DNA of 64,000 bases. Origin: a virus (lineage: Duplodnaviria > Caudoviricetes). The stretch covers positions 9,506 through 73,505 of the IMG/VR virus record IMGVR_UViG_3300020036_001974. One strand, 5' to 3'. Shown one piece after another: positions 12,289 through 42,163 of the stretch. The position numbers and the translations under genes were made by a program. Within the stretch, counting starts at the first letter, position 1. Each line of letters opens with the position of its first letter. Below the pieces are notes generated by a model. The model had not been told where the DNA came from. It worked only from the letters and a program-made list of their open reading frames with translations, and did not search any database.

Positions 12289-12896
12289 CAAAGTATTTAA
12301 TCCTTATTATCGTGGTTTTAGCCATTGCTGGTAGTATATTCTTTAACAGGTGGCTCGTTCTAAGGGAACAGAATAAGCAAATCACTCAGTATGCTATCCA
12401 GAAGAGTATGGAGGTTGAGTACTATAAGTTAGAGAACGGCCAATTAGTTGCTACCAAAGACGCTGCCATACTTGACCTAAAGACAGTAAAGAAGCTATCT
12501 GAAGATAAAGATCTACAGTGGATTAAACAGTTTGAAGGAATTAAGAAGAACCTCAGGAACTTAGAAACAGCTACTCAGATCAATACCGAGACGATTGTTT
12601 CTATGAAAGGGAATATTACCGACACAGTAGTAGTTGTAGATAGTACCGAACACAAGGCTTTCAGCTTTGATAACTCTGATAAATGGATGGAGGTTAAAGG
12701 AGTTGTTATTCCTGATCTAAAAACAGTCGATACGTTTGTTAAGGTACAAGTCCCTATTGAGGGAGTAATGTTTTGGAAACGTAAGAAAGTTCTTGGATTG
12801 AGAATAGGTGGTAAGGAGTGGAGTAGTGAGTTTACATCTCCTAATCCGTATACCAAGATAACAAATCTTAATCAGATTTTAATTAAGCGCAGGTAG
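12285..12896 (+). CDS. Membrane-anchored spanin-like protein
   Basis: Single N-terminal TM helix (YLILIIVVLAIAGSIFF) plus coiled coil; last gene of the late operon. Confidence 0.45.
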   Translation: MTKYLILIIVVLAIAGSIFFNRWLVLREQNKQITQYAIQKSMEVEYYKLENGQLVATKDAAILDLKTVKKLSEDKDLQWIKQFEGIKKNLRNLETATQINTETIVSMKGNITDTVVVVDSTEHKAFSFDNSDKWMEVKGVVIPDLKTVDTFVKVQVPIEGVMFWKRKKVLGLRIGGKEWSSEFTSPNPYTKITNLNQILIKRR

Positions 12897-13075
12897 TCTG
12901 AGAAGGACAGAACTTCGTAATCGCTTCCTTTATTTGATGATTCATCTGCTATCCACCATGTTATACCACATGCTGTAGTTATTGTATTATCATTTATTGA
13001 TTCTATCCTTGTAATAACGTCTCCTTTTTCATAAATATCGTATAATTTAACCATGTCTCCTATCTTCATTATCAA
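12872..13075 (-). CDS. FxxYL-tagged small protein (FSDYLRLI)
   Basis: KIGDMV SH3-like start, C-terminal tag. Confidence 0.7.
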   Translation of the reverse strand: MIMKIGDMVKLYDIYEKGDVITRIESINDNTITTACGITWWIADESSNKGSDYEVLSFSDYLRLIKI

Positions 13076-13171
13076 ATAGATTTAGCATAATAAGAACAAT
13101 AATACAAATAGTAAATACCGTAGCCATGTTGGGTCTTGTTTTCTTGTTTGTTTTAGTAATCTTAGCAGTAT

Positions 13172-13203
13172 ATACCGCCTACCTCCGGGGAAGTAGGCGG
13201 TAT
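13172..13203. terminator. Inverted repeat, possible terminator
   Basis: ATACCGCCTAC / GTAGGCGGTAT 11 bp stem; no clear U-tract on either strand. Confidence 0.35.
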
Positions 13204-13211
13204 GATGATGA

Positions 13212-13421
13212 CTAGGATATAATCTTAGAGGCTTTCGTATCCTCCTTGATAAAGGCTAAGTATTTATTAGCCCCGTCTACCACTTGCTCAAAAGTGAACA
13301 CTCCGCTTCCTCCCTTTTCCAAAGAAGCTAAAGACAGTTGTAAAAGATTCATACGTAACTCTAAGTTACGATCTCTCATGTGTTGTTCGATGATTTGTGC
13401 GTTCTGTTTTGCTTGATCCAT
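13212..13421 (-). CDS. Hypothetical protein
   Basis: 69 aa helical ORF; resembles the 44190-44369 product. Confidence 0.55.
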   Translation of the reverse strand: MDQAKQNAQIIEQHMRDRNLELRMNLLQLSLASLEKGGSGVFTFEQVVDGANKYLAFIKEDTKASKIIS

Positions 13422-13443
13422 TTTGTTTATTGTTTAGTTAAAT

Positions 13444-13839
13444 TTAAGCATTAGAATATCTTAGTTCTTGTTTTAAAGTAGAAATAGTTTGCCGGGATTG
13501 TTCAATAACAACATTGACCTGAGACATTAATAAGGATAACTTTTTATACATAGAATCAGAATCCATATGATCCTTATACAACCCTTTAAACGTGTCCTTG
13601 GCCAAGTTCTCAGCCTTACCTACCGGCAGAGCAGAAGTAGATATAAACCCACTTAAAGAGGATTTATACATGTACTCGGTGGTGTTCTTACGTTCATACC
13701 ACTCCCCTACCAAGGAGGCCAAGTAGTAAGAATTAATAGATAATCTCTCTGTTATCTGGGTTTTACTACCAATATCATTAGTGTTATTGGTACTCTTCAG
13801 TAGAGAAATGTCTTTCTCAATCTCTTCGATTATTTGCAT
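13444..13839 (-). CDS. Coiled-coil hypothetical protein
   Basis: 131 aa; start overlaps the LCK end of the upstream tagged gene. Confidence 0.6.
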   Translation of the reverse strand: MQIIEEIEKDISLLKSTNNTNDIGSKTQITERLSINSYYLASLVGEWYERKNTTEYMYKSSLSGFISTSALPVGKAENLAKDTFKGLYKDHMDSDSMYKKLSLLMSQVNVVIEQSRQTISTLKQELRYSNA

Positions 13840-14066
13840 AATTTTAAATATTTATTAAATGAAATCTCCTGCCACCTCCAAATATTACCATTAATTGGTA
13901 AAGTACCCAAATTACTACCAATAGTCCAATTCATAACCTCAGAAAACGCAGTTGGTTTGGTTAATCTAATACAATCTTGATAATATAGATCAATACATCT
14001 TTCACCTATTATAATTTCACCAATTCCTCCCTCATTACTGTCGTGTATACACTTAAATATCGCCAT
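13830..14066 (-). CDS. FxxYL-tagged small protein (FNKYLKLCK)
   Basis: C-terminal tag. Confidence 0.7.
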   Translation of the reverse strand: MAIFKCIHDSNEGGIGEIIIGERCIDLYYQDCIRLTKPTAFSEVMNWTIGSNLGTLPINGNIWRWQEISFNKYLKLCK

Positions 14067-15843
14067 ATAGATCTGTTTTCTTGTTAAACATCTTTATAAT
14101 CTTGTTACACTCCGATATATAATACCGGGTATCTATATCATAAGGCCCTTCTTTCCACTCGTTAAACATGGTTACCTTACGCTTAACGTGTACATTTCCA
14201 TCTGTTTTATCAGTCTTTTTACGCAATACATCCCCTGATCTGGATATGTAATAACGTAAATGCTTCTGCAAAGGTTGCTCAATTACCATACCATTTTCAA
14301 CTTTTCTTAGATAAAATTTACCTTTCTTAGCACGTTGCCCTATTAGGAACGGACTTATATCTTTGGTATCACAAATTGTGACCTCAACAGGTGTACCTTT
14401 TAGGAAGAACTCTTTCAGGGCCATAGGCACAATCAACTGACTGTTATCCTTACCTAACTCCGGCTTACAGATAAACACCCCTTTTTCCTTAATACCACCG
14501 TCTGTTTTAACAGCAAGATAGTTATTTATATCCCTTACAATCAACTTTGAGTAGGTAGAATGTTCCAGTTTAAGGTTAAACAGATCTTCCCACCAAGAGC
14601 AAATCTGGTGATATTTAACCCGGTCTATCATCTCAACCTCTATACCATCTGTATTGGCAAGAATTATCTTACAAGCCCCTTCTAAAGTCAGCCTCTCACA
14701 TAACATAGCCAGTAGTAACTGACCGTTAATGGTAATCTTATAGAACATCATCGGATCATAGAAAGGGGAATACTCAGAGTTACTCTTACCAAAGGTTCCA
14801 TTCTGAGCCAGTTTTAAGGCTTCATTCTCTGGTGTGCCCTTCTTATAAGTCTTTCTTTCAATCGCAATTTGTTTGTATACCTCTGTAAACGCCTCACCGA
14901 AGTGAGCGGGTGCAAATTTACGAGAAACAGCGAGGGAAGGGTAAAAACCAGTAACATCACAGGAATCAACATCACTGTAGACAGCAGTTCCCCGGCAAGC
15001 ATGGATACCGCCCAAACCAAAAAAGTACTCAACACCGTTGAAGTTACAAGAATAGTCCACTTCCTGATCGTTTGAAGTAACCACCGTAGCTTTAAATTTG
15101 TCATATATTTCTTTAAATTCAGGTGAGGAAAACGATACCTCCGGTAGTATACAATCGGCTATTTTTACTTCTCTTCGTGGAGTTCTGCACTTCTTAAGTG
15201 AGTCGATAGATATTCCTATTTTATCACTGAGCATTTTAAGGATAATATATTCCCCTATTTTAGGGTCGTTGAAGTTACCCATATCAGTACCATACTTCTC
15301 ACCTAACTGTTTCCTCATTTTAATCTTAGGGAAGGTTAGTTCGTATAGCTTATAGGTAGCCATTACATCGTTAAGGTTATATTTAAGAACCTCGTCTATC
15401 TGGTCTTTAGTAATCTTATCCGAATGATGTATAGGCATATCCATTACATTCTCAAAACCCATATTAATCTGTAGCCATTTCAAAGAACAGAATTTAGACA
15501 AATTATCGAAATGATGGATTTTCATTAAATCCCGCTGCTTCCATCTCACTTCTACATACTCATTTCTCTCAGCCGTAATGCGCTTCTGTGCTACTTTGTA
15601 GATCTTGTTTTCAATCTTATCAACATCCCAGTTATCGTAGAAGAATTGAAGAATAGGAGTATCAAAGTCTATACAATTAAAACCCACAAGACTAATGTCC
15701 TTAGAAATAAAGTCGTACAATAGCTTACGGTCGTCCCGGTCTTTATGAATAGCAAATTGAGATACCTTCTTAGTTGTAGGATTATAGAAAGTAACGGTAA
15801 AGCAATTCTTAATAGTTTCAATGTCATATATCTCTATTTGCAT
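14053..15843 (-). CDS. polB: Family B DNA polymerase with 3'-5' exonuclease
   Basis: Exo motifs YDIET, GFNCIDFD, YNLNDV; pol motifs CDVTGFYPS, KLAQNGTFGK, NTDG. Confidence 0.9.
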   Translation of the reverse strand: MQIEIYDIETIKNCFTVTFYNPTTKKVSQFAIHKDRDDRKLLYDFISKDISLVGFNCIDFDTPILQFFYDNWDVDKIENKIYKVAQKRITAERNEYVEVRWKQRDLMKIHHFDNLSKFCSLKWLQINMGFENVMDMPIHHSDKITKDQIDEVLKYNLNDVMATYKLYELTFPKIKMRKQLGEKYGTDMGNFNDPKIGEYIILKMLSDKIGISIDSLKKCRTPRREVKIADCILPEVSFSSPEFKEIYDKFKATVVTSNDQEVDYSCNFNGVEYFFGLGGIHACRGTAVYSDVDSCDVTGFYPSLAVSRKFAPAHFGEAFTEVYKQIAIERKTYKKGTPENEALKLAQNGTFGKSNSEYSPFYDPMMFYKITINGQLLLAMLCERLTLEGACKIILANTDGIEVEMIDRVKYHQICSWWEDLFNLKLEHSTYSKLIVRDINNYLAVKTDGGIKEKGVFICKPELGKDNSQLIVPMALKEFFLKGTPVEVTICDTKDISPFLIGQRAKKGKFYLRKVENGMVIEQPLQKHLRYYISRSGDVLRKKTDKTDGNVHVKRKVTMFNEWKEGPYDIDTRYYISECNKIIKMFNKKTDLYGDI

Positions 15844-16055
15844 AATTTCTCTAGGTATCCGTTAAAGTCAATTCGTGTATAATCAGAAAAATAGAAGCTG
15901 CTTATGTTTAATTCTACCCCTCTCTTAGTAAATCCTACAAATATCTTACCATTTGAATCTGTCCAATAATAGGTAACTATTTTATTATTAATCTTAAGAA
16001 CATGGAGAATATCTCCATACTCATCTCGATACTTACCAACTTTAAGTTTACTCAT
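15834..16055 (-). CDS. FxxYL-tagged small protein (FNGYLEKLCK)
   Basis: C-terminal tag; paralog of 24137-24370. Confidence 0.7.
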   Translation of the reverse strand: MSKLKVGKYRDEYGDILHVLKINNKIVTYYWTDSNGKIFVGFTKRGVELNISSFYFSDYTRIDFNGYLEKLCK

Positions 16056-16291
16056 AGCAGTTTCAAATAATCGTTAAAATTCTTAACATATATCCAAGTC
16101 TTTGTTCTTAGGTAATACTCAACATCTTTCTTTAAATAAGTTGTTCTGCTGTAGCCTCCTTTTATATTCCACTCAATTACTACTCTCTCAATACCATTCC
16201 TCCTTAATATATCACCTGTTGTATACTGTATATCATAAGAATCATTCTTAACAGTAAACTTTCTGCCGATTTGTATCATAATTATTTGCAT
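16052..16291 (-). CDS. FxxYL-tagged small protein (FNDYLKLL)
   Basis: C-terminal tag, ATGA overlap. Confidence 0.7.
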   Translation of the reverse strand: MQIIMIQIGRKFTVKNDSYDIQYTTGDILRRNGIERVVIEWNIKGGYSRTTYLKKDVEYYLRTKTWIYVKNFNDYLKLL

Positions 16292-16372: not shown

Positions 16373-16726
16373 TTACAAGGAAGAGGTGAATTGATTGTAG
16401 GTTTCGCTATCATAAGTTTTCATTATTTCTAAACAGTGTTCCCAGTTCTTAAGAGATTTAAAATCCCCTTTATACCCTTCTATTTTAGAGTTGCAAGAGT
16501 GGCAAGCAGGGAAGTACATAACCGGGTTCCATATTAACTCAGTACGTCCTAGTTCTTTCAACCTAGCTTTAGGGATTATATGAGCAGATCCTTGGGCTTG
16601 TTTACCACATCCCATACAATAAGGCTTAGGATTAAAGGTATAAGTTTCTTTATAACTATCAGATAGTTTCTTTTGTATAGTAGCCTCAGATACCTTACTA
16701 CCATCTGAACATTTATAGTAGTTCAT
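16373..16726 (-). CDS. HNH/NinG-like Zn-binding nuclease
   Basis: CMGC...HIIPK...N...CHSCN pattern. Confidence 0.6.
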   Translation of the reverse strand: MNYYKCSDGSKVSEATIQKKLSDSYKETYTFNPKPYCMGCGKQAQGSAHIIPKARLKELGRTELIWNPVMYFPACHSCNSKIEGYKGDFKSLKNWEHCLEIMKTYDSETYNQFTSSL

Positions 16727-16911
16727 AGTTTCTTTAAGTATTCACTAAAAGCAACACCCTTGATATTAGAGTCATCGGCAACATATTGTTTATTGTAGAA
16801 AGAATACCACTTACTATTATAAGATACTTCACTTATCTTATATATCTCGTTTTCATTGAAGAAACTCATATATTGCTTCATAATAACAACATCTCCTACT
16901 TTATATTTCAT
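16723..16911 (-). CDS. FxxYL-tagged small protein (FSEYLKKL)
   Basis: MKYKVGDVV SH3/KOW-like start, tag. Confidence 0.7.
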   Translation of the reverse strand: MKYKVGDVVIMKQYMSFFNENEIYKISEVSYNSKWYSFYNKQYVADDSNIKGVAFSEYLKKL

Positions 16912-17111
16912 AATAACTTTAGATAATAGTTAAATGCTGAACCTTTTTCTTCCCAATTACCCCCACTCCATGTACCTATTTTACCAACCGGGTAATAATG
17001 AGTGTTATAAGTATTCTTTATTAACATGTGTTTGTTACTAGACATGATTAATATCTCCATATCACAAAGACCTTCGTCATAAATATAATAAATATATCCA
17101 ATCTTTTTCAT
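16908..17111 (-). CDS. FxxYL-tagged small protein (FNYYLKLL)
   Basis: C-terminal tag. Confidence 0.7.
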   Translation of the reverse strand: MKKIGYIYYIYDEGLCDMEILIMSSNKHMLIKNTYNTHYYPVGKIGTWSGGNWEEKGSAFNYYLKLL

Positions 17112-19126
17112 ACATTAAAATGGTTTCTCCAGAATTGTTCTTCTTTATATAAACTCATATACTCATCACCAAACGCCATGCTCTCACTCCAGAACCGGAA
17201 TCGGCTAATATCACAGTTAATAAGATAATCCCTAACCTGCCCTTCTCTGTTCTTAACAACCCTAAGCATTGCCTTGTTCATTGCAGGTACTTCCATACCA
17301 GTATCTGGGTGTTTGAGTAGTTCTTTCCTACGGTATTCAGGACGGTCAAGGATGATAAGTGTATCAGAGTTCTGTTCTATAGATTGTGAATCAGATAGGT
17401 CAGTAACATCGGGGTATTCTTTAGTATCCGCAGTACGGTTAATCTGGGCTAATAGAAAACAAGAAAGACCAGTCTCATTAGCATGTTGCTTAAGGGTTTG
17501 AAGGAAGTTAGCTAGGTCATAAGTCTTATTACCATACTTAGCATTACCCTGAACCATCCCTACATAGTCTAATACCATTACAGGCTGGATCTTAATACCT
17601 TCCATTTTCTCTTTCTTAGCTACCCCGGCTAACCATTCTAAGTTGGTCTTAATGATTGTTTCAATGTTGGTAGAGTATTGGTGGTAGGATATTGGAAACT
17701 TAGCTGCTTCAGCGTATGCTTTGTTAATCTCGGTACGGATGGCTTGAGGGAGTATCCTTGAGTACCGTAGTTCTGGTAGAGTAATTCCTACTTTCCAGCA
17801 AACATAACGATCTGCTAAAAAGGAAGCCTCCATTTCCCAAGAATAGATTAATAACTCACTACGTTTACCCTCTACTACTTTACCTGCTACCTCACTCATT
17901 TGAGTTACAAGCCCTGTGTTATGGGTTACTGTAAAATCTTCTAAAAAGAATCTCTTATCATCGTTCTCTAGTTGAAAACCATAATAATTACCAATACCTA
18001 TAGACTCTACAGAAATACCTGTCTTTGTTTTATCTATTCTAGTACTAGATGTTAGTAATTTCTTACGAGGTATTACTAATGGGAGAGTATTAAGATCGTT
18101 ACCAGAGATCACAGTTCTGTAATACACAGTACCGTTGACTACCTTCTCAGTAAGGTATCCTCTATACCCAAGAGAGTTTGACAGGTAAACAATATCGCTG
18201 GCTAACTGACGATTTACTTGTACAATTTCGTAGGAATTAGATGCCATGTAGCCGTCTGTATCTAGTAATCCTGCTAATAATTGTTTTCTTTGATTTACAG
18301 AAGATGTTAAGTATTTATGTGGAATATGTTTGTTGGAATAAACATTAATATCCTTTAATACATCTGTAAAATACTTACCAGATGTATTTCTTCCGGTTAT
18401 TGTTATTTCCTCGCAAGTTTTTCTATCATAGCGATTTATACCCCATCCTTCTTTATCTGTAATATCCTTTAAAGCATTGAATAATTCAATATCTGGTTTA
18501 AATATAGAAGCCTTATTATGACCACCGTCCCCTAACCATACTCCTAATAAATAAGGGTCTAACTCCAATATAACCTCGGGTTTAATCATTGTAGATTTAT
18601 AACCCTTATGAGAGAGCTTCCACTTATTTGTTTTTGTTAAATATTCATTTAGTGGAATATTAACAATCCCGCCTTTTACCCCATGTATTCCGTTTGTTAT
18701 TTCCTTTCTTATCTTATTTCTATAATAAGCAGAGCCGGATGACTTTAAACTAAGAACATGAACAGAGTTAACAATATAATCAATCGCTCTGTTTTGTTTT
18801 ATCTTAAACATTTCATCCTGTCCCTTACAAACAGAGACTACTTTATTAGGTCTACCATCTACACCCAATAGTAATTCTCCCGGTAAAATATCCTGCACTT
18901 CTTTAAAAGTACCATCAAACAGTATAACCTTAGTCCCGTAACCAAGGCACTTACCCTGACCACTACGGGCTGCAAGGGTTGTTACCTTACTAGGCACATG
19001 ACCACCGGTTATCATATTCAACTCATGAACCCCCATAGGAGTCCCGTATAACCCTATTTCCCTTGTAAGATTCGAGTGATACCTTTTATAAGATTTTTCA
19101 ACGGCTGATCTTTGTTCAATAAGCAT
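17108..19126 (-). CDS. dnaB: DnaB-like replicative helicase containing an intein
   Basis: Walker A ARSGQGK|T split by intein; VLDYVGMV, LAQINR, DLSDSQSIEQNSD, VKNREG motifs. Confidence 0.92.
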   Translation of the reverse strand: MLIEQRSAVEKSYKRYHSNLTREIGLYGTPMGVHELNMITGGHVPSKVTTLAARSGQGKCLGYGTKVILFDGTFKEVQDILPGELLLGVDGRPNKVVSVCKGQDEMFKIKQNRAIDYIVNSVHVLSLKSSGSAYYRNKIRKEITNGIHGVKGGIVNIPLNEYLTKTNKWKLSHKGYKSTMIKPEVILELDPYLLGVWLGDGGHNKASIFKPDIELFNALKDITDKEGWGINRYDRKTCEEITITGRNTSGKYFTDVLKDINVYSNKHIPHKYLTSSVNQRKQLLAGLLDTDGYMASNSYEIVQVNRQLASDIVYLSNSLGYRGYLTEKVVNGTVYYRTVISGNDLNTLPLVIPRKKLLTSSTRIDKTKTGISVESIGIGNYYGFQLENDDKRFFLEDFTVTHNTGLVTQMSEVAGKVVEGKRSELLIYSWEMEASFLADRYVCWKVGITLPELRYSRILPQAIRTEINKAYAEAAKFPISYHQYSTNIETIIKTNLEWLAGVAKKEKMEGIKIQPVMVLDYVGMVQGNAKYGNKTYDLANFLQTLKQHANETGLSCFLLAQINRTADTKEYPDVTDLSDSQSIEQNSDTLIILDRPEYRRKELLKHPDTGMEVPAMNKAMLRVVKNREGQVRDYLINCDISRFRFWSESMAFGDEYMSLYKEEQFWRNHFNV
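17918..18949 (-). mobile_element. Intein with LAGLIDADG homing endonuclease in DnaB P-loop (344 aa)
   Basis: Starts CLGYGT, ends VTHN, followed by Thr; LLGVWLGDG and LLAGLLDTDG motifs. Confidence 0.92.
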
Positions 19127-19305
19127 AAATATGTTTTAAATGTAACTAATTCAACATTATTATTTTCTACCCACTTAATTCCTCTCTTAGTTTCTATCAC
19201 AACACCAGCACCATTAGGTTTAGTAATATAGACTATTTTACCTACTATACCCTTCTCAATCCAAGGAGTGCTAATAATGGTTACAACTCTATCCCCCGCT
19301 TTCAT
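19054..19305 (-). CDS. FxxYL-tagged small protein (FKTYLCLL plus extension)
   Basis: MKAGDRVV SH3-like start; tag overlaps the dnaB start codon. Confidence 0.65.
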   Translation of the reverse strand: MKAGDRVVTIISTPWIEKGIVGKIVYITKPNGAGVVIETKRGIKWVENNNVELVTFKTYLCLLNKDQPLKNLIKGITRILQGK

Positions 19306-19695: not shown

Positions 19696-19977
19696 TTAAA
19701 AAGGGGTGTCATCACTACTTGAGGAATCAATATTCCCCCAATCATCTCTACCATCTGGTAAAACCGGTTCCTTAGCTTTAGGAACAAAGGTATCAACTTC
19801 AACATAATATCCCCCCTTCTTAGACTCTTTTACAACGAATTTAATCTCGTCTTTCTGAGTCTTAAGCCACTCGGTAATATCTTTCTTAGTGATAATACCG
19901 GAGAACTTAACAAAGTCAGGGGCATTGGGGAAAGGTTTAAACACTCTAACCCCGTTTACAAATTCAGTTTGTTTCAT
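19696..19977 (-). CDS. Putative single-stranded DNA-binding protein
   Basis: Small beta-rich protein with acidic tail ending DDTPF, like the SSB C-terminal tip. Confidence 0.6.
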   Translation of the reverse strand: MKQTEFVNGVRVFKPFPNAPDFVKFSGIITKKDITEWLKTQKDEIKFVVKESKKGGYYVEVDTFVPKAKEPVLPDGRDDWGNIDSSSSDDTPF

Positions 19978-20734: not shown

Positions 20735-20938
20735 TTATTTGTTTAAAAGTTTAATATATTCATTGAATTCCTCAATAATTAACCATTCATCTATATGCCA
20801 AATCATATCAGATTTATCTAATTTAATTGTTTTACCAATCTCTCCCCTAGTAAACTTAGTACCCGGGTTAACAAGAGTACAGTGTCTTTTATCAATCATC
20901 TTCCAAATGATACCATATTGTTTATGTCTATACATCAT
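20735..20938 (-). CDS. FxxYL-tagged small protein (FNEYIKLL)
   Basis: MMYRHK..GIIW paralog group, tag. Confidence 0.7.
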   Translation of the reverse strand: MMYRHKQYGIIWKMIDKRHCTLVNPGTKFTRGEIGKTIKLDKSDMIWHIDEWLIIEEFNEYIKLLNK

Positions 20939-21132
20939 AATAGTTTCAAGTATTCGTTAAATGTAACAATCACCCACTGCCCTGAATCCCAAGAATCACA
21001 ATTAAGATAATTAGTTCTATAACCTACATCTTTTATAGTCCAACCTCCTCCGTGTTTAATAAGCGTTCCACTGGCTCTGTTATTAGGATCAACGTCCCAT
21101 ATAATGCCTTCTTTTTTGTGTTTATACATCAT
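20935..21132 (-). CDS. FxxYL-tagged small protein (FNEYLKLL)
   Basis: MMYKHK..GIIW paralog group, tag. Confidence 0.7.
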   Translation of the reverse strand: MMYKHKKEGIIWDVDPNNRASGTLIKHGGGWTIKDVGYRTNYLNCDSWDSGQWVIVTFNEYLKLL

Positions 21133-21317
21133 AGCAATTTCAAATATTCCTTAAATTCATAAAGTGCTTCCCATTCTGTACTTCTCCATTGCGTTGTAAA
21201 ACGTTCTATCCTCCCAACAGCACTTTGATAGTATCCACCACCTGCTTTAATTAGAGTATAAGAACCGTCATCATTAAGCCTCCAGACAATACCCTTAGTT
21301 CTGTTTCTATACATCAT
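21129..21317 (-). CDS. FxxYL-tagged small protein (FKEYLKLL)
   Basis: MMYRNR..GIVW paralog group, tag. Confidence 0.7.
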   Translation of the reverse strand: MMYRNRTKGIVWRLNDDGSYTLIKAGGGYYQSAVGRIERFTTQWRSTEWEALYEFKEYLKLL

Positions 21318-21502
21318 AACATTTCCAGATAATCGTTAAAATTAACAATAACAAATCTCCATTTAAAATAGTAATTTCCTTTTATCTGAAAGCCATCTCC
21401 TGTATCTATCGCATCGTGTATACTACCAATAGGAAATATATTAGTTTCGTCTGTAATATACCCAACCTTGTTACCACCATTAATATATTTAACCTTAATC
21501 AT
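21314..21502 (-). CDS. FxxYL-tagged small protein (FNDYLEML)
   Basis: C-terminal tag. Confidence 0.7.
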   Translation of the reverse strand: MIKVKYINGGNKVGYITDETNIFPIGSIHDAIDTGDGFQIKGNYYFKWRFVIVNFNDYLEML

Positions 21503-21740
21503 TTATAGTCAGTTTAATTCCTACTTCTATACCTACCTCCCTTGCTATTAAAACAAGGGAATACTGGGTAAGGCGTTTACTATCCTTACCGTTTAAATAA
21601 AGACTAATATTACCCTTGTTTAACTGCAATTTCCGTGCCAATTCACTAATTGTCAGCTTCTTCTGAGTCATTTTATGACGGATTAATTCCCTTAAATCCT
21701 CATTATCCCTTACCAAACAATACTTTCTTATAGCCAACAT
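21495..21740 (-). CDS. XRE/Cro-type HTH DNA-binding protein
   Basis: LTISELARKLQLNKGNISLYLNG helix-turn-helix. Confidence 0.85.
   Translation of the reverse strand: MLAIRKYCLVRDNEDLRELIRHKMTQKKLTISELARKLQLNKGNISLYLNGKDSKRLTQYSLVLIAREVGIEVGIKLTIND
21625..21640 (-). promoter_or_regulatory. Sigma54-type -24/-12 match inside the HTH gene
   Basis: TGGCAC-GGAAA-TTGCA on - strand; may be a coding coincidence. Confidence 0.4.
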
Positions 21741-21946
21741 AAGTAATCTTTAAAGGTTGGTATTTTAGAAAACAAATGTTTAAATTTACTAATAGAATTA
21801 TAAGTATGAGTTCCTTCTGTACGTAACCTCGATGTTTCTTTATTCCAAGCTACTGTAACTCCTCTTTTAGGTAAATCTATAATAGTATATATTGTACCTC
21901 CTTTAACATTATCCTGATACCAACGGTATTTATCCCCTACTTGCAT
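21728..21946 (-). CDS. FxxYL-tagged small protein (FKDYLCWL)
   Basis: MQVGDKY start, tag. Confidence 0.7.
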   Translation of the reverse strand: MQVGDKYRWYQDNVKGGTIYTIIDLPKRGVTVAWNKETSRLRTEGTHTYNSISKFKHLFSKIPTFKDYLCWL

Positions 21947-22149
21947 AAGTTAATATATAGTTTAAAGGTAACTAACTCTGCATTTTGTTCTTTAATAGCA
22001 GGTCTTAAGTAATCATTATAAGGAGTTTGCGATAATACATATGGAACACTGGAACCATCCTCATCAATAATAGCAATGGTTCCTTTCCTAATATAACGAC
22101 TATGTCGTGTCATTATCACCACGTCTCCTTTCTTAAACTTGTATTTCAT
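21937..22149 (-). CDS. FxxYL-tagged small protein (FKLYINLCK)
   Basis: KFKKGDVV KOW-like start, tag. Confidence 0.7.
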   Translation of the reverse strand: MKYKFKKGDVVIMTRHSRYIRKGTIAIIDEDGSSVPYVLSQTPYNDYLRPAIKEQNAELVTFKLYINLCK

Positions 22150-22325
22150 AATAGTTTTAGATAATCATTAAATAGTACATCTTTGAACCTATACTGGAAC
22201 CATTTTATATTAATGTCCTGAAGTATATAGTAACCACTCCCAATAACTTCTTCAACCTTATAACAACAACCTCTTTTTAATCTACTGTTAGATTGTTCAT
22301 CATCAATACAAATTACATACTTCAT
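22146..22325 (-). CDS. FxxYL-tagged small protein, 59 aa, not in ORF track (FNDYLKLL)
   Basis: Hand translation MKYVICIDD...KDVLFNDYLKLL*; ATGA overlaps at both ends. Confidence 0.7.
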   Translation of the reverse strand: MKYVICIDDEQSNSRLKRGCCYKVEEVIGSGYYILQDINIKWFQYRFKDVLFNDYLKLL

Positions 22326-23047
22326 ATAGTTATTTCTTCAAATTGAACTGTTTCTTTAAGTAATCTTTTGCTACAGATTAAAGGGCATTTAGAACAAGAT
22401 GATTCTTTTGGGAATCTTGGGAACTCGTCTAATAACGAGTATTCATCCCATAAGGTTCGGGCACTGGAGAATCTTTGGTGGTACTCTTCAACAGCCTGAT
22501 CACTTATATTAACCCGTATCTCCTTGATTCTCATCTTAGTAGAGTAGTCAAAGATAAGTAACCTCATTTCAGGAATTATACCGAAATTCTGTTCATATAA
22601 CCATTGGTAGTGGATTTGTTGAAGGAAATCTACAGTAGATAAATCACTCCACATACCTCCTTCTAAGTCGGCAGTTAGCTTAAGATCGTACACAATCAAT
22701 GGGTCTGTAGTAAAGTCAATAGTACCTTCCCTGTCTCCATGCTTGAGAACCAACTGCCTGTCCTTAATAACTTTACCACCAAAATCCTTATGATTAGGGT
22801 CAAACATATTCTTAAACCGTTCGGCCTGTTCTTCTATACGTAGGTGTTCAGCCGATTTACCCTTCTTTAGTAAGGGAAGTTCAGTTTGTTTACCACCAAC
22901 CCCAGAACCTAAACAAAGAGTTTCAAAGAAGGAACCCTTTTGCATAGGACTACCATCAGGTGCATCTGGTCTCTTAAGGATAAGTTCATTAGCTAACCGA
23001 GGACACTCTGATTCAAGTACCTTTACAATAGATTGTGTTATTTGCAT
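22322..23047 (-). CDS. Cas4-like/PD-(D/E)xK exonuclease
   Basis: GTIDF...YDLK...Q...Y catalytic pattern; N-terminal Cys plus C-terminal CxxCPxxC (Fe-S). Confidence 0.75.
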   Translation of the reverse strand: MQITQSIVKVLESECPRLANELILKRPDAPDGSPMQKGSFFETLCLGSGVGGKQTELPLLKKGKSAEHLRIEEQAERFKNMFDPNHKDFGGKVIKDRQLVLKHGDREGTIDFTTDPLIVYDLKLTADLEGGMWSDLSTVDFLQQIHYQWLYEQNFGIIPEMRLLIFDYSTKMRIKEIRVNISDQAVEEYHQRFSSARTLWDEYSLLDEFPRFPKESSCSKCPLICSKRLLKETVQFEEITI

Positions 23048-23259
23048 AGTTTTATATATTCGTTAAATGAACTTCTCCATTTCCAAACATTACCATCTAA
23101 AAGCATAGTATTACCTAAATAGAGGTTTAGTATACCACACGCTTTTGTACGCTTTGTAATCTTGATATACACATCTTTCCCTATATACATAATATCCCCG
23201 ATCAGTGTTAATCCTAACACATTCCGTTTTGAATTACTATAATAACAAACAACCTTCAT
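23038..23259 (-). CDS. FxxYL-tagged small protein (FNEYIKLCK)
   Basis: C-terminal tag. Confidence 0.7.
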   Translation of the reverse strand: MKVVCYYSNSKRNVLGLTLIGDIMYIGKDVYIKITKRTKACGILNLYLGNTMLLDGNVWKWRSSFNEYIKLCK

Positions 23260-30395: not shown

Positions 30396-30602
30396 TCATT
30401 GTAATAGTTTTATGTAATGATTAAAAGAAATCTCTTCAAAGAACTGGTTATAATCGAAGTTTGTAATATATTGTTTTGAGGGGGTTATTGAATACCTCGT
30501 CATACCAATATCATCTATTATACCCATGTCAGTCTCCAAATATATTTTACCGACTGTCATATGAATGAACAATTCAGTCTTACACAACCAATACCTTTTC
30601 AT
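30396..30602 (-). CDS. FxxYL-tagged small protein (FNHYIKLL)
   Basis: MTVGKIY core, tag. Confidence 0.7.
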   Translation of the reverse strand: MKRYWLCKTELFIHMTVGKIYLETDMGIIDDIGMTRYSITPSKQYITNFDYNQFFEEISFNHYIKLLQ

Positions 30603-30672: not shown

Positions 30673-30927
30673 CTAGGACGTTTTCTTTGTAGCTGAAGAT
30701 TCTTGGGTATTGCATAACTTTAAATAGTTTTTAAACGGTGGAATATATATATCTCCTTTATCTAATTTAACAGGAAATTTATCATCTTTATATAAATCAC
30801 CAACCTGCCAACCTGTCTTATTATCAGAACCTTTTAAACACCTCCAACTAAGATCACCAATATAAATCCATTGGTAATTATTATGAGTTATATAGATTCC
30901 CCCTATTGTTGGTGTTATTCTTTGCAT
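30673..30927 (-). CDS. FxxYL-tagged small protein (FKNYLKLC plus extension)
   Basis: Tag followed by a short extension overlapping the next ORF. Confidence 0.65.
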   Translation of the reverse strand: MQRITPTIGGIYITHNNYQWIYIGDLSWRCLKGSDNKTGWQVGDLYKDDKFPVKLDKGDIYIPPFKNYLKLCNTQESSATKKTS

Positions 30928-31229
30928 AAATTAACGTATAAATCAAATGTTTTCTTAACAGGAGTCCACTTACCATCCCAATATTTGCCATTCAAATACC
31001 AACTGCCTTGTTTTTGGGATATACTAACACCGGGTAAACCATTTAATCTATCTTTAGTAGTAACTGTTCTCCAACCGGCTGAGGATATATAAATGTTATT
31101 ACCCTTGTGATAAGCAATAAGGTTACCGAATACTGTAAGGTTGTTTCCATCTGTTTCTGTATTAGAAACCTTACAATACCTACGTTCTAAGAACGCCTTA
31201 ATTACTGGTTGTATAGACTTTCTACTCAT
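30915..31229 (-). CDS. Phage hypothetical protein (GWxTxTTKxRLN motif) with FxxY tag (FDLYVNLCK)
   Basis: 104 aa; tag at C-terminus. Confidence 0.65.
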   Translation of the reverse strand: MSRKSIQPVIKAFLERRYCKVSNTETDGNNLTVFGNLIAYHKGNNIYISSAGWRTVTTKDRLNGLPGVSISQKQGSWYLNGKYWDGKWTPVKKTFDLYVNLCKE

Positions 31230-31459: not shown

Positions 31460-31648
31460 TTATTTAAAAGTGGGTATTAGCTTAATATAGTTATTAAACG
31501 AAAAGGGAGAAGCATTCGGTTTATCTTTATAATGATAACACGGAGTCCTTGACCAGTTATTCATATTTACACCATGTACCCATCTTGGAGTGGGGTCAGG
31601 ATATAACCAAAATATAGGTTTTCCACAGTATTTACAAGTATAGTTCAT
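31460..31648 (-). CDS. Zn-finger-like FxxYL-tagged protein (FNNYIKLI)
   Basis: CKYCG...H...C.H, tag. Confidence 0.7.
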   Translation of the reverse strand: MNYTCKYCGKPIFWLYPDPTPRWVHGVNMNNWSRTPCYHYKDKPNASPFSFNNYIKLIPTFK

Positions 31649-31830
31649 TTTTCAATTAGTTCTAAATAAGATATAAAAGCATAAGGTTCGTAAGAAATGG
31701 GTAAGTCACCACTATAAGGAAAATTATAACCTTTGTCCAAATTAGTTACCTCTTTAGGATCTGAGATAATAGTTATAACCTTATTACTAAGATCTAATAT
31801 AACACCTGATATTTTATGTTTATATAGCAT
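31645..31830 (-). CDS. FxxYL-tagged small protein (FISYLELI)
   Basis: MLYKHKISG start, tag. Confidence 0.7.
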   Translation of the reverse strand: MLYKHKISGVILDLSNKVITIISDPKEVTNLDKGYNFPYSGDLPISYEPYAFISYLELIEK

Positions 31831-35289: not shown

Positions 35290-35511
35290 TTACTGTTTAT
35301 GGCAAGATGAACCACTCGGTTTTTCAAGGTAGGTAAGGTAGGCTCTAAAGAAAGCAGGAGTATGGAAAAACCCACCTAATGTATTATGTAGACCAAAACA
35401 AAAGAACCCGTTACTATGTACCTTTCCTTTCTTATAAGAATTGGATATTTCCTGACTCCACCAATCTTTACCGAGACTCTCTATCTCATATCCACATCTG
35501 CTGCATTTCAT
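35290..35511 (-). CDS. Zn-finger-like FxxYL-tagged protein (FRAYLTYL)
   Basis: CSRCG...H...C...H, tag. Confidence 0.65.
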   Translation of the reverse strand: MKCSRCGYEIESLGKDWWSQEISNSYKKGKVHSNGFFCFGLHNTLGGFFHTPAFFRAYLTYLEKPSGSSCHKQ

Positions 35512-35850: not shown

Positions 35851-36021
35851 TCATAGTAATTTTAAATAATTGGTAAAATTAATAGGTTTCAAGTCTTTTG
35901 TATAGCAGATATTTACATTCCCATCTGTAAACTTTATACGTGATACCAGACCTTCTTTACTCATTGCTTCAATATCACATACCCTACCCATACGGCTTAA
36001 TACTCTATCGCCTATCTTCAT
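35851..36021 (-). CDS. FxxYL-tagged small protein, 56 aa, not in ORF track (FTNYLKLL)
   Basis: Hand translation MKIGDRVL...KPINFTNYLKLL*. Confidence 0.7.
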   Translation of the reverse strand: MKIGDRVLSRMGRVCDIEAMSKEGLVSRIKFTDGNVNICYTKDLKPINFTNYLKLL

Positions 36022-36033
36022 AACTTCCTTAAA

Positions 36034-38337: not shown

Positions 38338-39024
38338 TTATTTATGTAAAATTGTTATGTTTCCTTTTTGAATATCCTTGAAAGTACAACTTTTATTTGT
38401 CAGATGGTCGATGACCTCGTTGGCCTTTTGATTGTATGTCCTCCTCTTGTTTCCTCTGAAAGTATCACCAATCTGGTCTTTTCTGATCTTAGAATAGGTA
38501 TCGTCATAATTACTCTTGTGTTGTTCTTTAATCCTCTGTTTCATGATCTTATATGCCTGCTCTATGTTGGCCTCCTTTGATCTACCCTCAACCTTAACAG
38601 TAACATGTGCCTTTATGTGGGTCATCATGACTGAGCATTGTTTTCTGTTACGATGCTGACCACCGGCTCCTGTGCCACTGAAAAATCTGATAGTAACATC
38701 TTCAGACTTAACATCCACTTGTATATCCTGTAAAGGATCAAGTACAGCTACGCTTACTGTGGAGGTTTGAGTTCGTCCTCTCTTTTCAGTAGGAGGAACC
38801 CTTTGCCATCTATGGCCGCCTATTTCATTAGCAAAGATTTTCTTGACGTCCATCCCTTGTATTCATAACTTAACAAAACCCGGACGGTTCTCCATTGATT
38901 CTATAGTAATGTTATTCTTGTAACAGAATCTTGAGTAGACATCTGCCATGTCCTGACACAGGAGTTTTGCATCTTGTCCTCCCTCCATGTCTCTAATTTC
39001 GATAATAATTGTTTCTTGCTTCAT
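38338..39024 (-). CDS. RF1-like peptide chain release factor homolog (no domain 1) with in-frame UGA at 38863-38865
   Basis: IIEIRDMEGGQDAKL N-part; GGHRWQRVPPTE (PxT), GAGGQHRN (GGQ), RRTYN...DH; ATGA-coupled start at 39024. Confidence 0.8.
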
Positions 39025-39311
39025 TTACGTTTCAGTTTAATCCTCTTTCTATCGTACCAATACTCTATATACGAATCATTAACGAAAATAGTTACAAAAA
39101 GTTCATCTTTTTTTGCCAAGATGAGGGCTGCGTCTATTCTACCGGTATCCTTGTCTACCCGAACCTGCTCCAGATGGGTCACTGGTAAGGTAATGTACCC
39201 ATATTCACGAACATAGAAGGATACACTATCGTTTTGAACTAATATCCTGCCAGATATATCATAGCTCCCGGAAGTGGTAACATACATGGTCCAGTATATG
39301 ATCCACTTCAT
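39021..39311 (-). CDS. Hypothetical protein
   Basis: 96 aa beta-rich ORF. Confidence 0.5.
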   Translation of the reverse strand: MKWIIYWTMYVTTSGSYDISGRILVQNDSVSFYVREYGYITLPVTHLEQVRVDKDTGRIDAALILAKKDELFVTIFVNDSYIEYWYDRKRIKLKRK

Positions 39312-39541
39312 AGAGTTTTTAGATAGTCGTTAAATGATAGTATTTTACTATACCCATCTTTTTTAGTGGGTCTCCATTTAAGACAATTACCACTCATCTC
39401 AGGTCTATTAGTTATATTAATTATCTCCCCTTTCCATAACAACCATCTCCACTTTAAACTATTACCTTCATTAAAGATTTGAAGTATATTATTATTTATA
39501 AATCTCCATCTCCCTATATACTCACTGTTGGACATAATCAA
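39308..39541 (-). CDS. FxxYL-tagged small protein (FNDYLKTL)
   Basis: C-terminal tag. Confidence 0.7.
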   Translation of the reverse strand: MIMSNSEYIGRWRFINNNILQIFNEGNSLKWRWLLWKGEIINITNRPEMSGNCLKWRPTKKDGYSKILSFNDYLKTL

Positions 39542-39758: not shown

Positions 39759-39879
39759 GCTCCTATTGGATTTTTGATTTTTATTAACTTGTCATTTCCA
39801 GCGTAGTGATAGTGAATATAGAACTCACTTTCACATACTATTCCATTTTTGATCTCTGTGTCTGTCTCTATAACCTTAA

Positions 39880-40110
39880 TTACTGGCTTTTGACAGATCG
39901 GGCATTGCGTTTGCATCGTTTTATATAGTCTTTGAATTTATAATCAGGTTCCAGTTCCCAACACCACTGAGTCCATGATTCTGTAGCAGGATACTCATGG
40001 TAGTAATCAGGTTCAATATTCTTTTTATCATCTCCTGTAAGTTCTGCAACAAGATATTCATCAGGGTCTATACCCCATAATAACTTACGACCACAGGTCT
40101 TACATTTCAT
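39880..40110 (-). CDS. Zn-finger-like FxxYL-tagged protein (FKDYIKRCK)
   Basis: CKTCG...H...C, tag. Confidence 0.65.
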   Translation of the reverse strand: MKCKTCGRKLLWGIDPDEYLVAELTGDDKKNIEPDYYHEYPATESWTQWCWELEPDYKFKDYIKRCKRNARSVKSQ

Positions 40111-40838
40111 TTCTTAATAGGATAAGTACTATAAGAACCACAAGACTTACACTGGTACTGTTGAACCTGAATCCCCCCGGCTGTCAATCTCACCATCTTC
40201 TTAGCTAAAGAATTACTTCCACAATTCCGGCAAGCACAATCTGACTTAGGAGTTGAAAAAGGATGGTTTTCAATATAAGGTCTTATTTTAAGATAGACCT
40301 CCTCCAGACGAACAACGTCTATTTTATTATATTTAACCATTTCAGCTACTGCTAGTCTTTCTCCTCTCATAGCCCGGAGCCACATTCCTGTTGAGGTTTC
40401 AATCTTACCATGCCCTATTAGCTTTTTACCTAAAAAGTCAAGACGGTTGGAGGTAAAGGCAGCTATTTTCTTTATTTCCTTGAGGGTATCCAGTTGAACA
40501 ATCTTAGGCAGCGGTTTTAAACCGTGAAAGATCAACCTCGCATTTAATTTTTTAGTATCGAATTTTTTAGAATTATGCCCTATTAGAATATCTGCTTCTT
40601 CTAAAGCCTCTCTAAGGGCTTTACAAACCCCATAATCATCATCTGCCGACTTACGCTTAAAGTCATTGATTGAGGTAGATTTTACACTCTTAGCTCCTAG
40701 TTCCTTCCAAGCTGCTGAGATAATGAAGGTATCCTGAAGGATGTCAGTGTGGTTAATGTGGTCCTGATACAGGCTCCAAGTAGTAGCAATAATTGGAGAA
40801 GTTTCGATGTCGTATAGAACTATCTTAGGTTTTCTCAT
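40107..40838 (-). CDS. DEDD/RNase H-like 3'-5' exonuclease with C-terminal Zn ribbon
   Basis: YDIET, GHNSKKFD, YNKIDV; CRNC...CKSC. Confidence 0.85.
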   Translation of the reverse strand: MRKPKIVLYDIETSPIIATTWSLYQDHINHTDILQDTFIISAAWKELGAKSVKSTSINDFKRKSADDDYGVCKALREALEEADILIGHNSKKFDTKKLNARLIFHGLKPLPKIVQLDTLKEIKKIAAFTSNRLDFLGKKLIGHGKIETSTGMWLRAMRGERLAVAEMVKYNKIDVVRLEEVYLKIRPYIENHPFSTPKSDCACRNCGSNSLAKKMVRLTAGGIQVQQYQCKSCGSYSTYPIKK

Positions 40839-41041
40839 TTTAAAAGGTTTAAATATTTATTAAAAGAAACTTCTATAAATCTATCTTTATACCAAGGACC
40901 ACTCCATTCACCATTTACTTTAACCTCTATCAATTCCCTGTCACTGTTATCAAACGTGTATGTGGTTTCGGCAATCTCATACACTTTACAGGCTATAAGT
41001 AAAGAACCGGGAGTTGTTGATATACACTTAGCGTACTTCAT
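40835..41041 (-). CDS. FxxYL-tagged small protein (FNKYLNLL)
   Basis: C-terminal tag. Confidence 0.7.
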   Translation of the reverse strand: MKYAKCISTTPGSLLIACKVYEIAETTYTFDNSDRELIEVKVNGEWSGPWYKDRFIEVSFNKYLNLLK

Positions 41042-41453
41042 TCTTAATCCTGTCTATTTCCATTAAAAGATAATGAACTGACTTGTAGAGATCTTTAACA
41101 TCTCCGCTCTTTCCGTACCCTGAGGTAAGGTAGCGTTTGTTATACTTAAGGCTGTTGCCTACGTTAAAACCTTTCCCATGTTGGGAACTTCTCATAAGAT
41201 GGTACAGGTCCACCTCTGGTTCTCCTTCTTCGTACTTATCCTTGAAGGTTGATAATACGTGGGACACTACTTCACCAATAGAAGTAACAATAGCAGAATC
41301 GTAAAGATCAAGCTCCACGAGATCACTGGATACTTTATTATTAGCTTTATCAGCGTCATTGATTCTACTTTGTTCTGCTTTTTCTAAGATTTTGTAAATT
41401 GACTGTTCTTCCATGTTATTCTTGTTGCGTTTCTTGATGTATACGATCAACAA
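41028..41453 (-). CDS. DUF3310-like protein
   Basis: GFNVGNSLKY..RY...K....DLYKSVHYL. Confidence 0.6.
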   Translation of the reverse strand: MLIVYIKKRNKNNMEEQSIYKILEKAEQSRINDADKANNKVSSDLVELDLYDSAIVTSIGEVVSHVLSTFKDKYEEGEPEVDLYHLMRSSQHGKGFNVGNSLKYNKRYLTSGYGKSGDVKDLYKSVHYLLMEIDRIKNEVR

Positions 41454-42021
41454 GGCTTAAAGGTTTCACTTCTTGTGAAGTTTCTTCAATAAATACTTCA
41501 TCTTTTATATCAGCTATCTTTGCAAGCTTCTTTTTAGCTTCAACAAGATCCGGGATTGTCATGAGTAGTGCATTTCGCTTTTTCAGCTCATCTGTCTCCA
41601 CAGGAACATCCTTTCCATCCACATTGGTAGTGGAGGACATTATAGTCTTTTTGATTAATTCTATTTGTTTGTTGATTATCTCCAGCATATCCCGATCCTC
41701 ATCGTGCTGGATCTCTAGGTACTTAGCAAGGGCTGCTTCTATCTTTGGGTTCTTACCTTCTACTATCTCCCGGGCACGGAGATCAAGTGTCTCATGGTTT
41801 CTATTCTGAATCTTACCACCTGCTGACAGAATGGCTAATTCTTTTCTTTTAGTAATAGGGTGTTGTTTTAAAGGAGACTTGTAATCAGCTACAAGCATTA
41901 CATACCTCATCCACTTGTCTCCAACCCTTGCATCTTCTTCTAATGCAGCAAATTCAGGTATAAGTCTTAATCCATTATGGGAATCAAATACCGACTTTCC
42001 CCGTTCTATCTGGTAAAGCAT
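41416..42021 (-). CDS. Helical hypothetical protein
   Basis: 201 aa charged helical ORF. Confidence 0.6.
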   Translation of the reverse strand: MLYQIERGKSVFDSHNGLRLIPEFAALEEDARVGDKWMRYVMLVADYKSPLKQHPITKRKELAILSAGGKIQNRNHETLDLRAREIVEGKNPKIEAALAKYLEIQHDEDRDMLEIINKQIELIKKTIMSSTTNVDGKDVPVETDELKKRNALLMTIPDLVEAKKKLAKIADIKDEVFIEETSQEVKPLSLVDRIHQETQQE

Positions 42022-42163
42022 CTAAATAGTTATTAAAATTAATAGGATAATGAAAAGCAGGATAGTGTATATCTTTACAATAAGGGTTTGAATCTTTATC
42101 AAGATACAAACCTATTACTTTAGTTTTAACCAGTTCTACCTTGCAATATTTACATTTATACAT
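41984..42163 (-). CDS. Zn-finger-like FxxYL-tagged protein, 59 aa, not in ORF track (FNNYLDAL)
   Basis: Hand translation MYKCKYCK...PYCKDIHYPAFHYPINFNNYLDALPDRTGKVGI*. Confidence 0.65.
   Translation of the reverse strand: MYKCKYCKVELVKTKVIGLYLDKDSNPYCKDIHYPAFHYPINFNNYLDALPDRTGKVGI

Follow-up and report, generated by a model that had tools for sequence, protein, structure and literature searches.

The locus examined here raises the question of why some 40 small phage proteins with divergent bodies should all end in the same short peptide. It lies in a virus of the Caudoviricetes (IMG/VR record IMGVR_UViG_3300020036_001974), and the window, that is the whole stretch of 64,000 nucleotides that was analysed, covers bases 9506-73505 of one 73,505-bp contig, contains no N and has a G+C content of about 37%. 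Forty minus-strand open reading frames (ORFs) of 55 to 104 amino acids match the pattern F-x-x-Y-[LIMV]-x-x-[LCI], referred to below as the tag, at no more than 20 residues from their C-terminus. With a probability of about one half, and judging from sequence comparison, this tag is a portable C-terminal docking handle that would be read by one co-evolving partner. The module, a predicted short amphipathic helix following a β-strand, is portable and kept by selection on the peptide, and binding domains that are small and evolve fast (SH3/Tudor-like barrels, Zn-ribbons and a Kyano_Gp96 domain) would each present the same helix to a single reader; the phage would handle about 40 putative early proteins as one class.

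An earlier reading of the DNA, made without database searches and called here the sequence-only reading, had listed these 40 ORFs. Pattern matching and a check of coordinates recovered every one of them on the minus strand, including five of fewer than 60 residues (those beginning at 22146, 25191, 29586, 35851 and 41984, with 59, 59, 55, 56 and 59 residues, respectively). The tagged genes make up about 30% of the ORFs and 11% of the genome. In 33 of the 40 proteins the tag ends at most three residues from the C-terminus, the number of residues that follow it varying from 0 to 20 over the whole set. Second-order Markov shuffles of the genome yield 0 to 3 such ORFs (mean about 0.8-1), so the motif is much rarer in shuffled sequence; a similar frequency there had been named in the sequence-only reading as speaking against it. 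Beyond the 40, the pattern matches four more ORFs of the window, none of them near the C-terminus, and no large enzyme of the window bears the tag, as had been reported for the core enzymes. The grouping does not depend on the pattern: a graph of BLOSUM-scored 8-residue windows taken from the last 20 residues of all small ORFs gathers 39 C-termini in one cluster, while internal control segments of the same proteins form a cluster of 3. In 23 of the 40, a Trp occurs among the 12 residues that precede the tag, and the residues just before the tag Phe mostly alternate between hydrophobic and polar, which suggests that the shared module is a β-strand followed by a two-turn helix. Pfam and PHROGs searches with all 40 proteins returned only one Kyano_Gp96/phrog_554 match and one weak Zn-binding match.

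Related phages were reached through homologues of a divergent AAA+ ATPase gene of the window (28153-29298, minus strand). They are about 72-77 kb long and have their core genes in the same order, and their small proteins end in one dialect of the tail per phage. In L057, whose AAA+ protein is 93% identical to that of the window, the tail is the window tag (10 tagged small ORFs, against a mean of 0.1 in shuffled sequence). The tail reads [ST]-F-K-x-Y in L058 (AAA+ identity 53%; 12 tagged ORFs, shuffle mean 0.2), E-V-x-x-[IL]-L-K-[EQ]-Y in L060 (46%; 18-19 against 0.2), I-I-[DN]-[KR]-V-L-x-K-Y in L062 (44%; 28 against 0.0), [LI]-x-L-E-D-Y-[VL]-x-E-A-[LI]-K-I in L063 (47%; 28 against 0.0) and N-F-K-S-L-Y-E-K-L-S-G in L064 (42%; 11-12 against 0.0), the counts for these five phages referring to one locus of 12-21 kb each. 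Every dialect has hydrophobic residues at i, i+3, i+4 and i+7, plus one Tyr. The dialects track the AAA+ and vWA trees: the window and L057, together with L058, share F-[NK]-x-Y, while L060 and L062 share [VI]-x-x-[IV]-L-x-[EK]-Y. Polar positions of the helix are also conserved, for example in FKSLYEKLSG, which points to an outside partner. A tag and a reader drifting together would give each phage lineage such a private dialect, and their co-evolution would explain why the dialect is uniform within a lineage.

Two further observations concern tails of this kind. A Cys-rich protein of 117 residues (16373-16726, minus strand) contains in all lineages an internal E-I-M-K-T-Y-D..E.Y segment that resembles the L060/L062 dialect. 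Another tail, R-[DE]-x-[KR]-[IL]-x-x-[IL]-[LI], occurs on several small proteins of L065 (17723-20516), L073, L080, L082, L086 and L104, which are phages with relatives of the AAA+ gene or of the adjacent zincin-vWA gene described below.

The conservation of the tag is found at the level of the peptide. Phe and Tyr are invariant as residues while their codons alternate (TTT/TTC 35/5, TAT/TAC 25/15), as do five Leu codons; the synonymous variation noted in the sequence-only reading is thus confirmed. The mean information at codon positions 1, 2 and 3 of the window tag is 1.02, 1.35 and 0.68 bits, and positions 1 and 2 are more informative than position 3 in five relatives too, making six lineages in all. 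Nucleotide conservation does not exceed amino-acid conservation, in agreement with the selection on the peptide that had been proposed: among the L064 tags, amino-acid identity (0.84) is higher than nucleotide identity (0.70). Where residues are identical, their third codon positions agree in only 47-62% of cases, which indicates that selection, rather than recent gene conversion, keeps the tails uniform; such randomised third positions speak against conversion of the 3' ends, a reading that was rejected. The core F-x-x-Y-[LI] is therefore selected as protein.

The bodies to which this peptide is joined are diverse. Once the tag is removed, only about ten pairs of bodies are similar by BLAST, and the groups that can be recognised are proteins with an MK.K.GD.V-type N-terminus, an MMYRHK group, CxxC Zn-ribbon-type proteins, a MYIKT pair and one Kyano_Gp96/phrog_554 protein. 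The tag is carried by at least three body types, namely SH3/Tudor-like barrels, Zn-ribbons and the Kyano_Gp96 domain. The 40 proteins do not all belong to a single homologous family, as the Kyano_Gp96 and CxxC bodies come from different ones. In each genome, moreover, both the Zn-ribbon and the MK.K.GD.V-type (SH3-type) bodies carry the local dialect. The barrel assignment comes from the 62-residue protein encoded at 16723-16911 (tag FSEYLKKL), for which AlphaFold2, with 24 aligned relatives, predicts a five-strand barrel and a helix at residues 56-60 (mean predicted local distance difference test score, pLDDT, 78.7; 60-71 in the tag). Foldseek returned for this SH3-like model only weak matches (E > 0.1), to SH3, Tudor, PWWP and KOW folds. 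An ESM Atlas look-up of a member of the MMYRHK group was uninformative (score <0.8).

The most telling body is the protein of 104 residues encoded at 30915-31229, in which a Kyano_Gp96/phrog_554 domain (residues 1 to about 92) is followed by the appended tag FDLYVNLC. It matches phrog_554 at 2.3e-11 over residues 3-83 and PF23790 (Kyano_Gp96) at 7e-6, with 26.6 bits for a cut-off of 27. Its AlphaFold model, based on an alignment of 82 rows, shows an α/β domain up to residue 91 (pLDDT about 87-90) and then the tag helix at 92-102, at a pLDDT of 54-66 that is below the confidence of the domain. A phmmer search of 1.84 billion representatives yielded 1486 relatives of the domain, nearly all of whose matches end at query residue 91-93 or thereabouts, just before the tag, and most of the short relatives inspected stop there, at W-x-G-x-W-x-x-[IV]. 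Close relatives of the window protein bear F-x-x-Y tails (TFDLYVNLC, TFKLYLESC, TFQMYLAEN, DFVRYYKAA), while distant ones end before the tail. Tagged members come only from this phage group, each with the dialect of its own lineage, their tails being FDLYVNLC, FKIYTELC, VKDYIELC, EVVNILETY and DIKKILESY; the orthologue in L060 ends in EVVNILETY, and the relatives P0129 and P0235 in VKDYIELC and DIKKILESY, respectively. Judged from these alignments, the tag is an add-on lying outside the Kyano_Gp96 domain, and the objection that the helix could be integral to one shared fold does not hold for this protein.

Bodies and tails also evolve at different rates. Between the window and L057, tagged bodies are 46-62% identical (91% for the Kyano_Gp96 orthologue) and untagged neighbours 93-95%, while key positions of the tag change only synonymously or conservatively. 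Non-synonymous divergence (dN) reaches 0.283 for the tagged genes against 0.042 for untagged neighbours, i.e. it is about seven times faster, and dN/dS is 0.32 against 0.075. The tagged genes encode real proteins, in which purifying selection acts on the tail while the body is under relaxed or diversifying selection.

A docking handle would explain the portability of the tag, the occurrence of the same consensus on different folds, the conserved polar positions of the helix and the genome-wide dialects, and an addressing interpretation of the locus is plausible on the comparisons made here. From the behaviour of the tails we infer a single reader. The best candidate would be the phage's own AAA+ ATPase (28153-29298), probably of the MoxR type, together with a zincin-vWA protein (26898-28187, minus strand; DUF2201_N/DUF2201), a pair encoded inside the arrays and flanked by them in every lineage. 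The zincin-vWA protein gives matches to PF13203 and PF09967; its HECDH zincin motif lies N-terminal to the vWA domain with the DVSGS metal ion-dependent adhesion site (MIDAS), and both motifs are invariant in 7 lineages. The AAA+ protein of the window has no Pfam match at E <= 0.01, while in the alignment of 13 sequences (the window and 12 relatives, 37-93% identity) 9 match AAA_5, 7 bpMoxR and 5 AAA_3, and the gene matches the phrog_1297 ATPase at 2e-43. Profile searches of the PDB with the AAA+ and vWA alignments gave only a P-loop match to Lon, or nothing.

In jumbo phages of "group 2.2", a MoxR AAA+ protein is accompanied by a vWA co-chaperone fused to an N-terminal metallopeptidase, and a role of the pair in virion assembly has been suggested (Iyer et al. 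2021, PMC7824862). More generally, vWA domains have been proposed to capture a client peptide and MoxR to remodel the client (Kaur et al. 2020, PMC7159879). The two-gene architecture here agrees in having an HExxH zincin with a DxSxS MIDAS vWA domain N- to C-terminally, beside an AAA+ protein that is probably of the MoxR type. By contrast, these papers describe no tagged client set, and the present pair sits in the early/replication region amid 40 tagged mini-genes. The MoxR/vWA pair may act on the tagged proteins, by remodelling or by cleavage, or may employ them as adaptors to host targets. In its fullest form, the proposal is a phage addressing system in which the helix would be a plug for the phage's own MoxR ATPase/zincin-vWA machine and the mini-domains would be interchangeable adaptors delivering host, probably defence, proteins to it, or clients switched off on schedule; this more specific version is offered tentatively, with the odds clearly against it.

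The genomic association was examined at 46 IMG/VR loci around distant zincin-vWA homologues, a cluster of at least three shared tails being counted as positive. Among the loci that have 12 or more small ORFs, 9 of 23 showed shared tails, against none of 15 controls, which were imperfectly matched (one-sided Fisher p = 0.005). A co-fold of the zincin-vWA protein with the 16723-16911 protein, Zn and Mg scored 0.00, with no controls run, and speaks neither for nor against binding. A DUF2201 and AAA+ pair also occurs in a Chloroherpetonaceae bacterial contig (L066, 8615-11209), in a chromosomal context and without small tagged genes. In two relatives, L060 (8531-8818) and L062 (9209-9475), a ClpS-like gene (PF02617) is found a few genes upstream of that for the AAA+ protein; a link to ClpS was rejected, as such a gene was seen only in these two phages and not among the subset of window proteins that was scanned against Pfam.

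Several points weigh against the docking handle. The relatives carry the AAA+ gene by construction, since it was the entry of the search; 14 of the 23 zincin-vWA neighbourhoods lack a shared tail, so the association is partial, and the loci that do have one represent few related groups. In 28 of the 40 genes, the last codons of the tag (YTA-TGA or YTA-TGC) contain the ATG of the next gene. Tag positions 7-8, notably the Cys at 8, are thus partly a by-product of gene overlap, and part of their conservation is not driven by the peptide. Given the speed at which bodies diverge, lineage-specific expansion from one founder could also produce uniformity within a genome. Finally, at least 16 of the 40 bodies share the MK.K.GD.V-type N-terminal motif, their N-termini clustering in the pattern-free graph, and the only one of them that was modelled (16723-16911) is an SH3-like barrel. 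Much of the set thus belongs to a single paralogous family, whose conserved terminal helix could simply be part of the fold. The divergent bodies claimed in the sequence-only reading accordingly stand in part: the tag is portable across unrelated bodies, and the set is partly a family.

This last point opens the alternative that survives best, a possible though doubtful one, in which the tag is the framework helix of a hyper-divergent SH3-like paralogous family, packing on the core of its own protein and expanded from a founder in each lineage; most tagged proteins would then be SH3-like mini-barrels. Through deletions within the arrays, a few unrelated bodies would have acquired the 3' end that encodes the helix, and birth-and-death turnover would homogenise the copies. 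Tudor, PWWP and chromo-type barrels often bear a C-terminal helix, and in the model of the 16723-16911 protein the helix follows the barrel directly. The clustering of N-termini, which extends to 20 proteins in L062, the ten or so body pairs still similar by BLAST and the Trp shortly before the tag in 23 of the 40 all suit such a family; the bodies diverge so fast that duplicates younger than the split of the phages would already be unrecognisable, and the ages of paralogues cannot be read. Yet the Kyano_Gp96 domain needs no helix to be complete, as nearly all its relatives show, and its lineage-matched tag is kept over 64-98% identity. Packing on a particular core also fits poorly with the same dialect on Zn-ribbon bodies in every lineage, with the conservation of helix positions that are polar and probably exposed, and with a Phe and a Tyr that are almost never conservatively replaced in 40 copies although the would-be packing residues vary. 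In the models, the helix is predicted with lower confidence than the body.

A less probable alternative is that the tags bind each other, giving homo- or hetero-oligomers or one large co-assembly. The amphipathic spacing found in every dialect would suit an association helix, and mutual binding would require the observed uniformity within a genome. Such a helix, of 8-10 residues, would nonetheless be short for a stable helix-helix interface, and pure homodimerisation would not need one sequence in 40 proteins.

Two other explanations are very improbable. In the first, the conserved element would be a nucleotide signal and the peptide a by-product: in a host that initiates translation without Shine-Dalgarno (SD) sequences, the repeated 3' sequence would serve the next gene as an RNA operator or as an element for translation initiation or coupling. 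Besides the 28 next starts inside the tag, 5 more lie within 12 nt, and the consensus tag is written in AT-only codons. Over the whole genome, an SD-like core precedes only 17 of 130 start codons, the upstream regions being A-rich and G-poor (A = 67% at position -13). A-rich, SD-poor starts are typical of phages of Bacteroidota-type hosts, which suggests such a host for this phage. A junction YTA-TGC-AAA-TAA recurs several times between 13830 and 39916 on the minus strand, the upstream protein ending in L-C-K and the next beginning with M-Q-I or M-Q-x; examples are found at the DNA polymerase, a 296-aa protein and a 241-aa protein. The codon-position analysis largely refutes a nucleotide signal: third positions are far less informative in all six lineages, and Phe and Tyr stay fixed while their codons alternate. 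Seven tags without a coupled downstream start retain the motif, untagged genes overlap their successors too without any tag, and the other dialects are GA-rich with a variable distance to the next start.

In the second, which is just as hard to sustain, the tag would either direct the proteins to the membrane, as a helix of the MinD/FtsA type, or mark them for a host protease, as a C-terminal degron like ssrA; its amphipathic periodicity and the hydrophobic -KLL with which many window tags end at the very C-terminus might suggest as much. Membrane helices of that type are cationic, while the net charge of the tag with three residues on either side is +1.0 in the window and -2.8, -2.0 and -1.1 in L060, L063 and L062. 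The fixed, free LAA-type carboxy-terminus of an ssrA-like degron is likewise missing, 0 to 20 variable residues following the tag and other dialects ending in polar residues. The routing to a common hub proposed by the sequence-only reading keeps its support from the genome-wide dialects, which fit a common reader, while a membrane as that hub is disfavoured by the three acidic dialects. A sliding-clamp or PIP motif was rejected, as there is no Gln in the tag and no clamp gene was noticed among the proteins scanned, and so was a nascent-peptide stalling signal, as the distance from tag to stop varies over 0-20 residues.

Taken as a docking handle, the tag invites comparison with known hub-and-tail systems, such as the C-terminal acidic tip of SSB, the clamp-binding tails by which T4 gp43, gp33 and gp55 bind gp45, and the ssrA/SspB-ClpX tags. 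As in those, a short terminal peptide is common to unlike proteins and would have one reader, which here is a proposal. Tails of that kind occur on only a few proteins, which keep them across wide taxa, whereas here about 30% of the genes are tagged and the tag changes genome-wide between related phages; neither a Q-x-x-L-x-F clamp motif nor an LAA end is present. The phage also has an SSB-like protein with a separate tail: a 93-aa protein (19696-19977, minus strand) ends in DDTPF and its orthologues in DGDLPF, DDLPF and NDLPF, which looks like an SSB-type acidic C-terminal tip, i.e. a second, classical tail system in the same phage. The ankyrin-PRANC/F-box proteins of poxviruses, which dock on SCF, offer another likeness, with many fast-evolving binding domains each joined to one conserved C-terminal element. 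Their docking element is a folded F-box-like domain of ~40 residues with a known reader in a eukaryotic host, whereas the element here is a helix of 8-12 residues and its reader only a candidate. The T4 capsid-targeting sequence, which is N-terminal and cleaved, and the cationic MinD-type membrane-targeting helices are also short transferable addressing peptides; the present tag differs in being C-terminal, on putative early proteins, and acidic in three dialects. No account of comparable tagged gene sets came up in full-text searches of the literature.

The other members of the set, all on the minus strand, are given with length in amino acids and tag in brackets. The last gene of the operon, 12872-13075 (67, FSDYLRLI), has no coupled downstream start and uses GC-richer codons; 13212-13421 (69) may bear a degenerate tag, ANKYLAFI, with Ala for Phe, and falls in the tail cluster of the pattern-free graph. 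Further upstream in the operon lie 13830-14066 (78, FNKYLKLC), 15834-16055 (73, FNGYLEKL), 16052-16291 (79, FNDYLKLL) and 16908-17111 (67, FNYYLKLL), the body of this last resembling an L064 protein with another dialect, and 19054-19305 (83, FKTYLCLL), which continues for 20 residues beyond the tag. The MMYRHK group is made up of 20735-20938 (67, FNEYIKLL), 20935-21132 (65, FNEYLKLL) and 21129-21317 (62, FKEYLKLL), adjoined by 21314-21502 (62, FNDYLEML). Amid these tagged genes stands an untagged Cro/C1-type helix-turn-helix protein of 81 amino acids (21495-21740, minus strand), kept in L058, L062 and L063. Beyond it are 21728-21946 (72, FKDYLCWL), 21937-22149 (70, FKLYINLC), 22146-22325 (59, FNDYLKLL), 23038-23259 (73, FNEYIKLC), 24137-24370 (77, FNAYLILC), 24367-24555 (62, FSNYIKRL) and 24552-24755 (67, FKHYLDKL). 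In 25191-25370 (59, FNNYIYLC) the tag lies downstream of the ATG of the next gene; 25346-25570 (74, FTKYIKLC) and the MYIKT pair, 25558-25755 (65, FKYYLKLC) and 25746-25943 (65, FKDYMKLC), follow. The zincin-vWA and AAA+ genes are bordered on one side by 26092-26283 (63, FSEYLKLL), 26280-26522 (80, FNDYIKLI), 26474-26686 (70, FSDYLILI) and 26683-26886 (67, FSTYLKLL), and on the other by 29586-29753 (55, FNEYLKLL), 29750-29962 (70, FNAYLRRL), 29959-30144 (61, FNYYLEKL), 30396-30602 (68, FNHYIKLL) and 30673-30927 (84, FKNYLKLC; 12 residues beyond the tag). After the Kyano_Gp96 gene come 31460-31648 (62, FNNYIKLI), of Zn-ribbon type, and 31645-31830 (61, FISYLELI). The remaining six are 35851-36021 (56, FTNYLKLL), 39308-39541 (77, FNDYLKTL), 40835-41041 (68, FNKYLNLL) and three CxxC proteins, 35290-35511 (73, FRAYLTYL), 39880-40110 (76, FKDYIKRC) and 41984-42163 (59, FNNYLDAL), with 11, 10 and 9 residues beyond the tag, respectively. 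SH3-like N-termini are seen in 21937-22149, 24367-24555, 29750-29962 and 35851-36021.

These genes are spread over two long minus-strand blocks (about 12.8-32.4 kb and 35-43 kb), and large plus-strand ORFs occupy the flanks of the window. Besides the zincin-vWA protein, the blocks encode a family-A DNA polymerase, a DnaB helicase, an RNase H-like exonuclease and an RF-1-domain protein. The DnaB-type helicase (17108-19126, minus strand) has 672 residues against 327-334 in relatives and contains Hint and LAGLIDADG homing-endonuclease domains, which indicates an intein. The RF-1/PCRF-domain protein (171 residues) and a 53-aa ORF before it occupy 38338-39024 on the minus strand, and a single tRNA-Thr (TGT; 43202-43274, minus strand) stands at the head of the minus-strand block. 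Close relatives of the window were found neither in the phage collection nor in IMG/VR, JGI metagenomes or GTDB genomes, and 12 kb of the window gave no megablast match to the phage collection. Back-translated tag patterns yielded only single chance matches in spurious ORFs in IMG/VR, JGI metagenomes and GTDB genomes, and the relatives of the DNA polymerase in IMG/VR (L001-L009, 30-37% identity) lack the tag.

About 30% of the genes of this phage, and similar shares in its relatives, are small orphans of the kind usually dismissed as "hypothetical". If the helix were only an element of a fold, the set would still be among the largest paralogous expansions in a mid-sized phage. A shared, selected handle would join these orphan genes into one system, and the tag offers a direct experimental entry point to them; their fast-evolving bodies are natural candidates for binders acting in host takeover or anti-defence. 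For the MoxR/zincin-vWA pairs of phages, so far unexplained, the finding could point to a function and, if a reader were found, a compact targeting peptide could be made of the tag. A MoxR/vWA addressing system, if true, would be a bacterial-virus counterpart of the F-box-type adaptor libraries.

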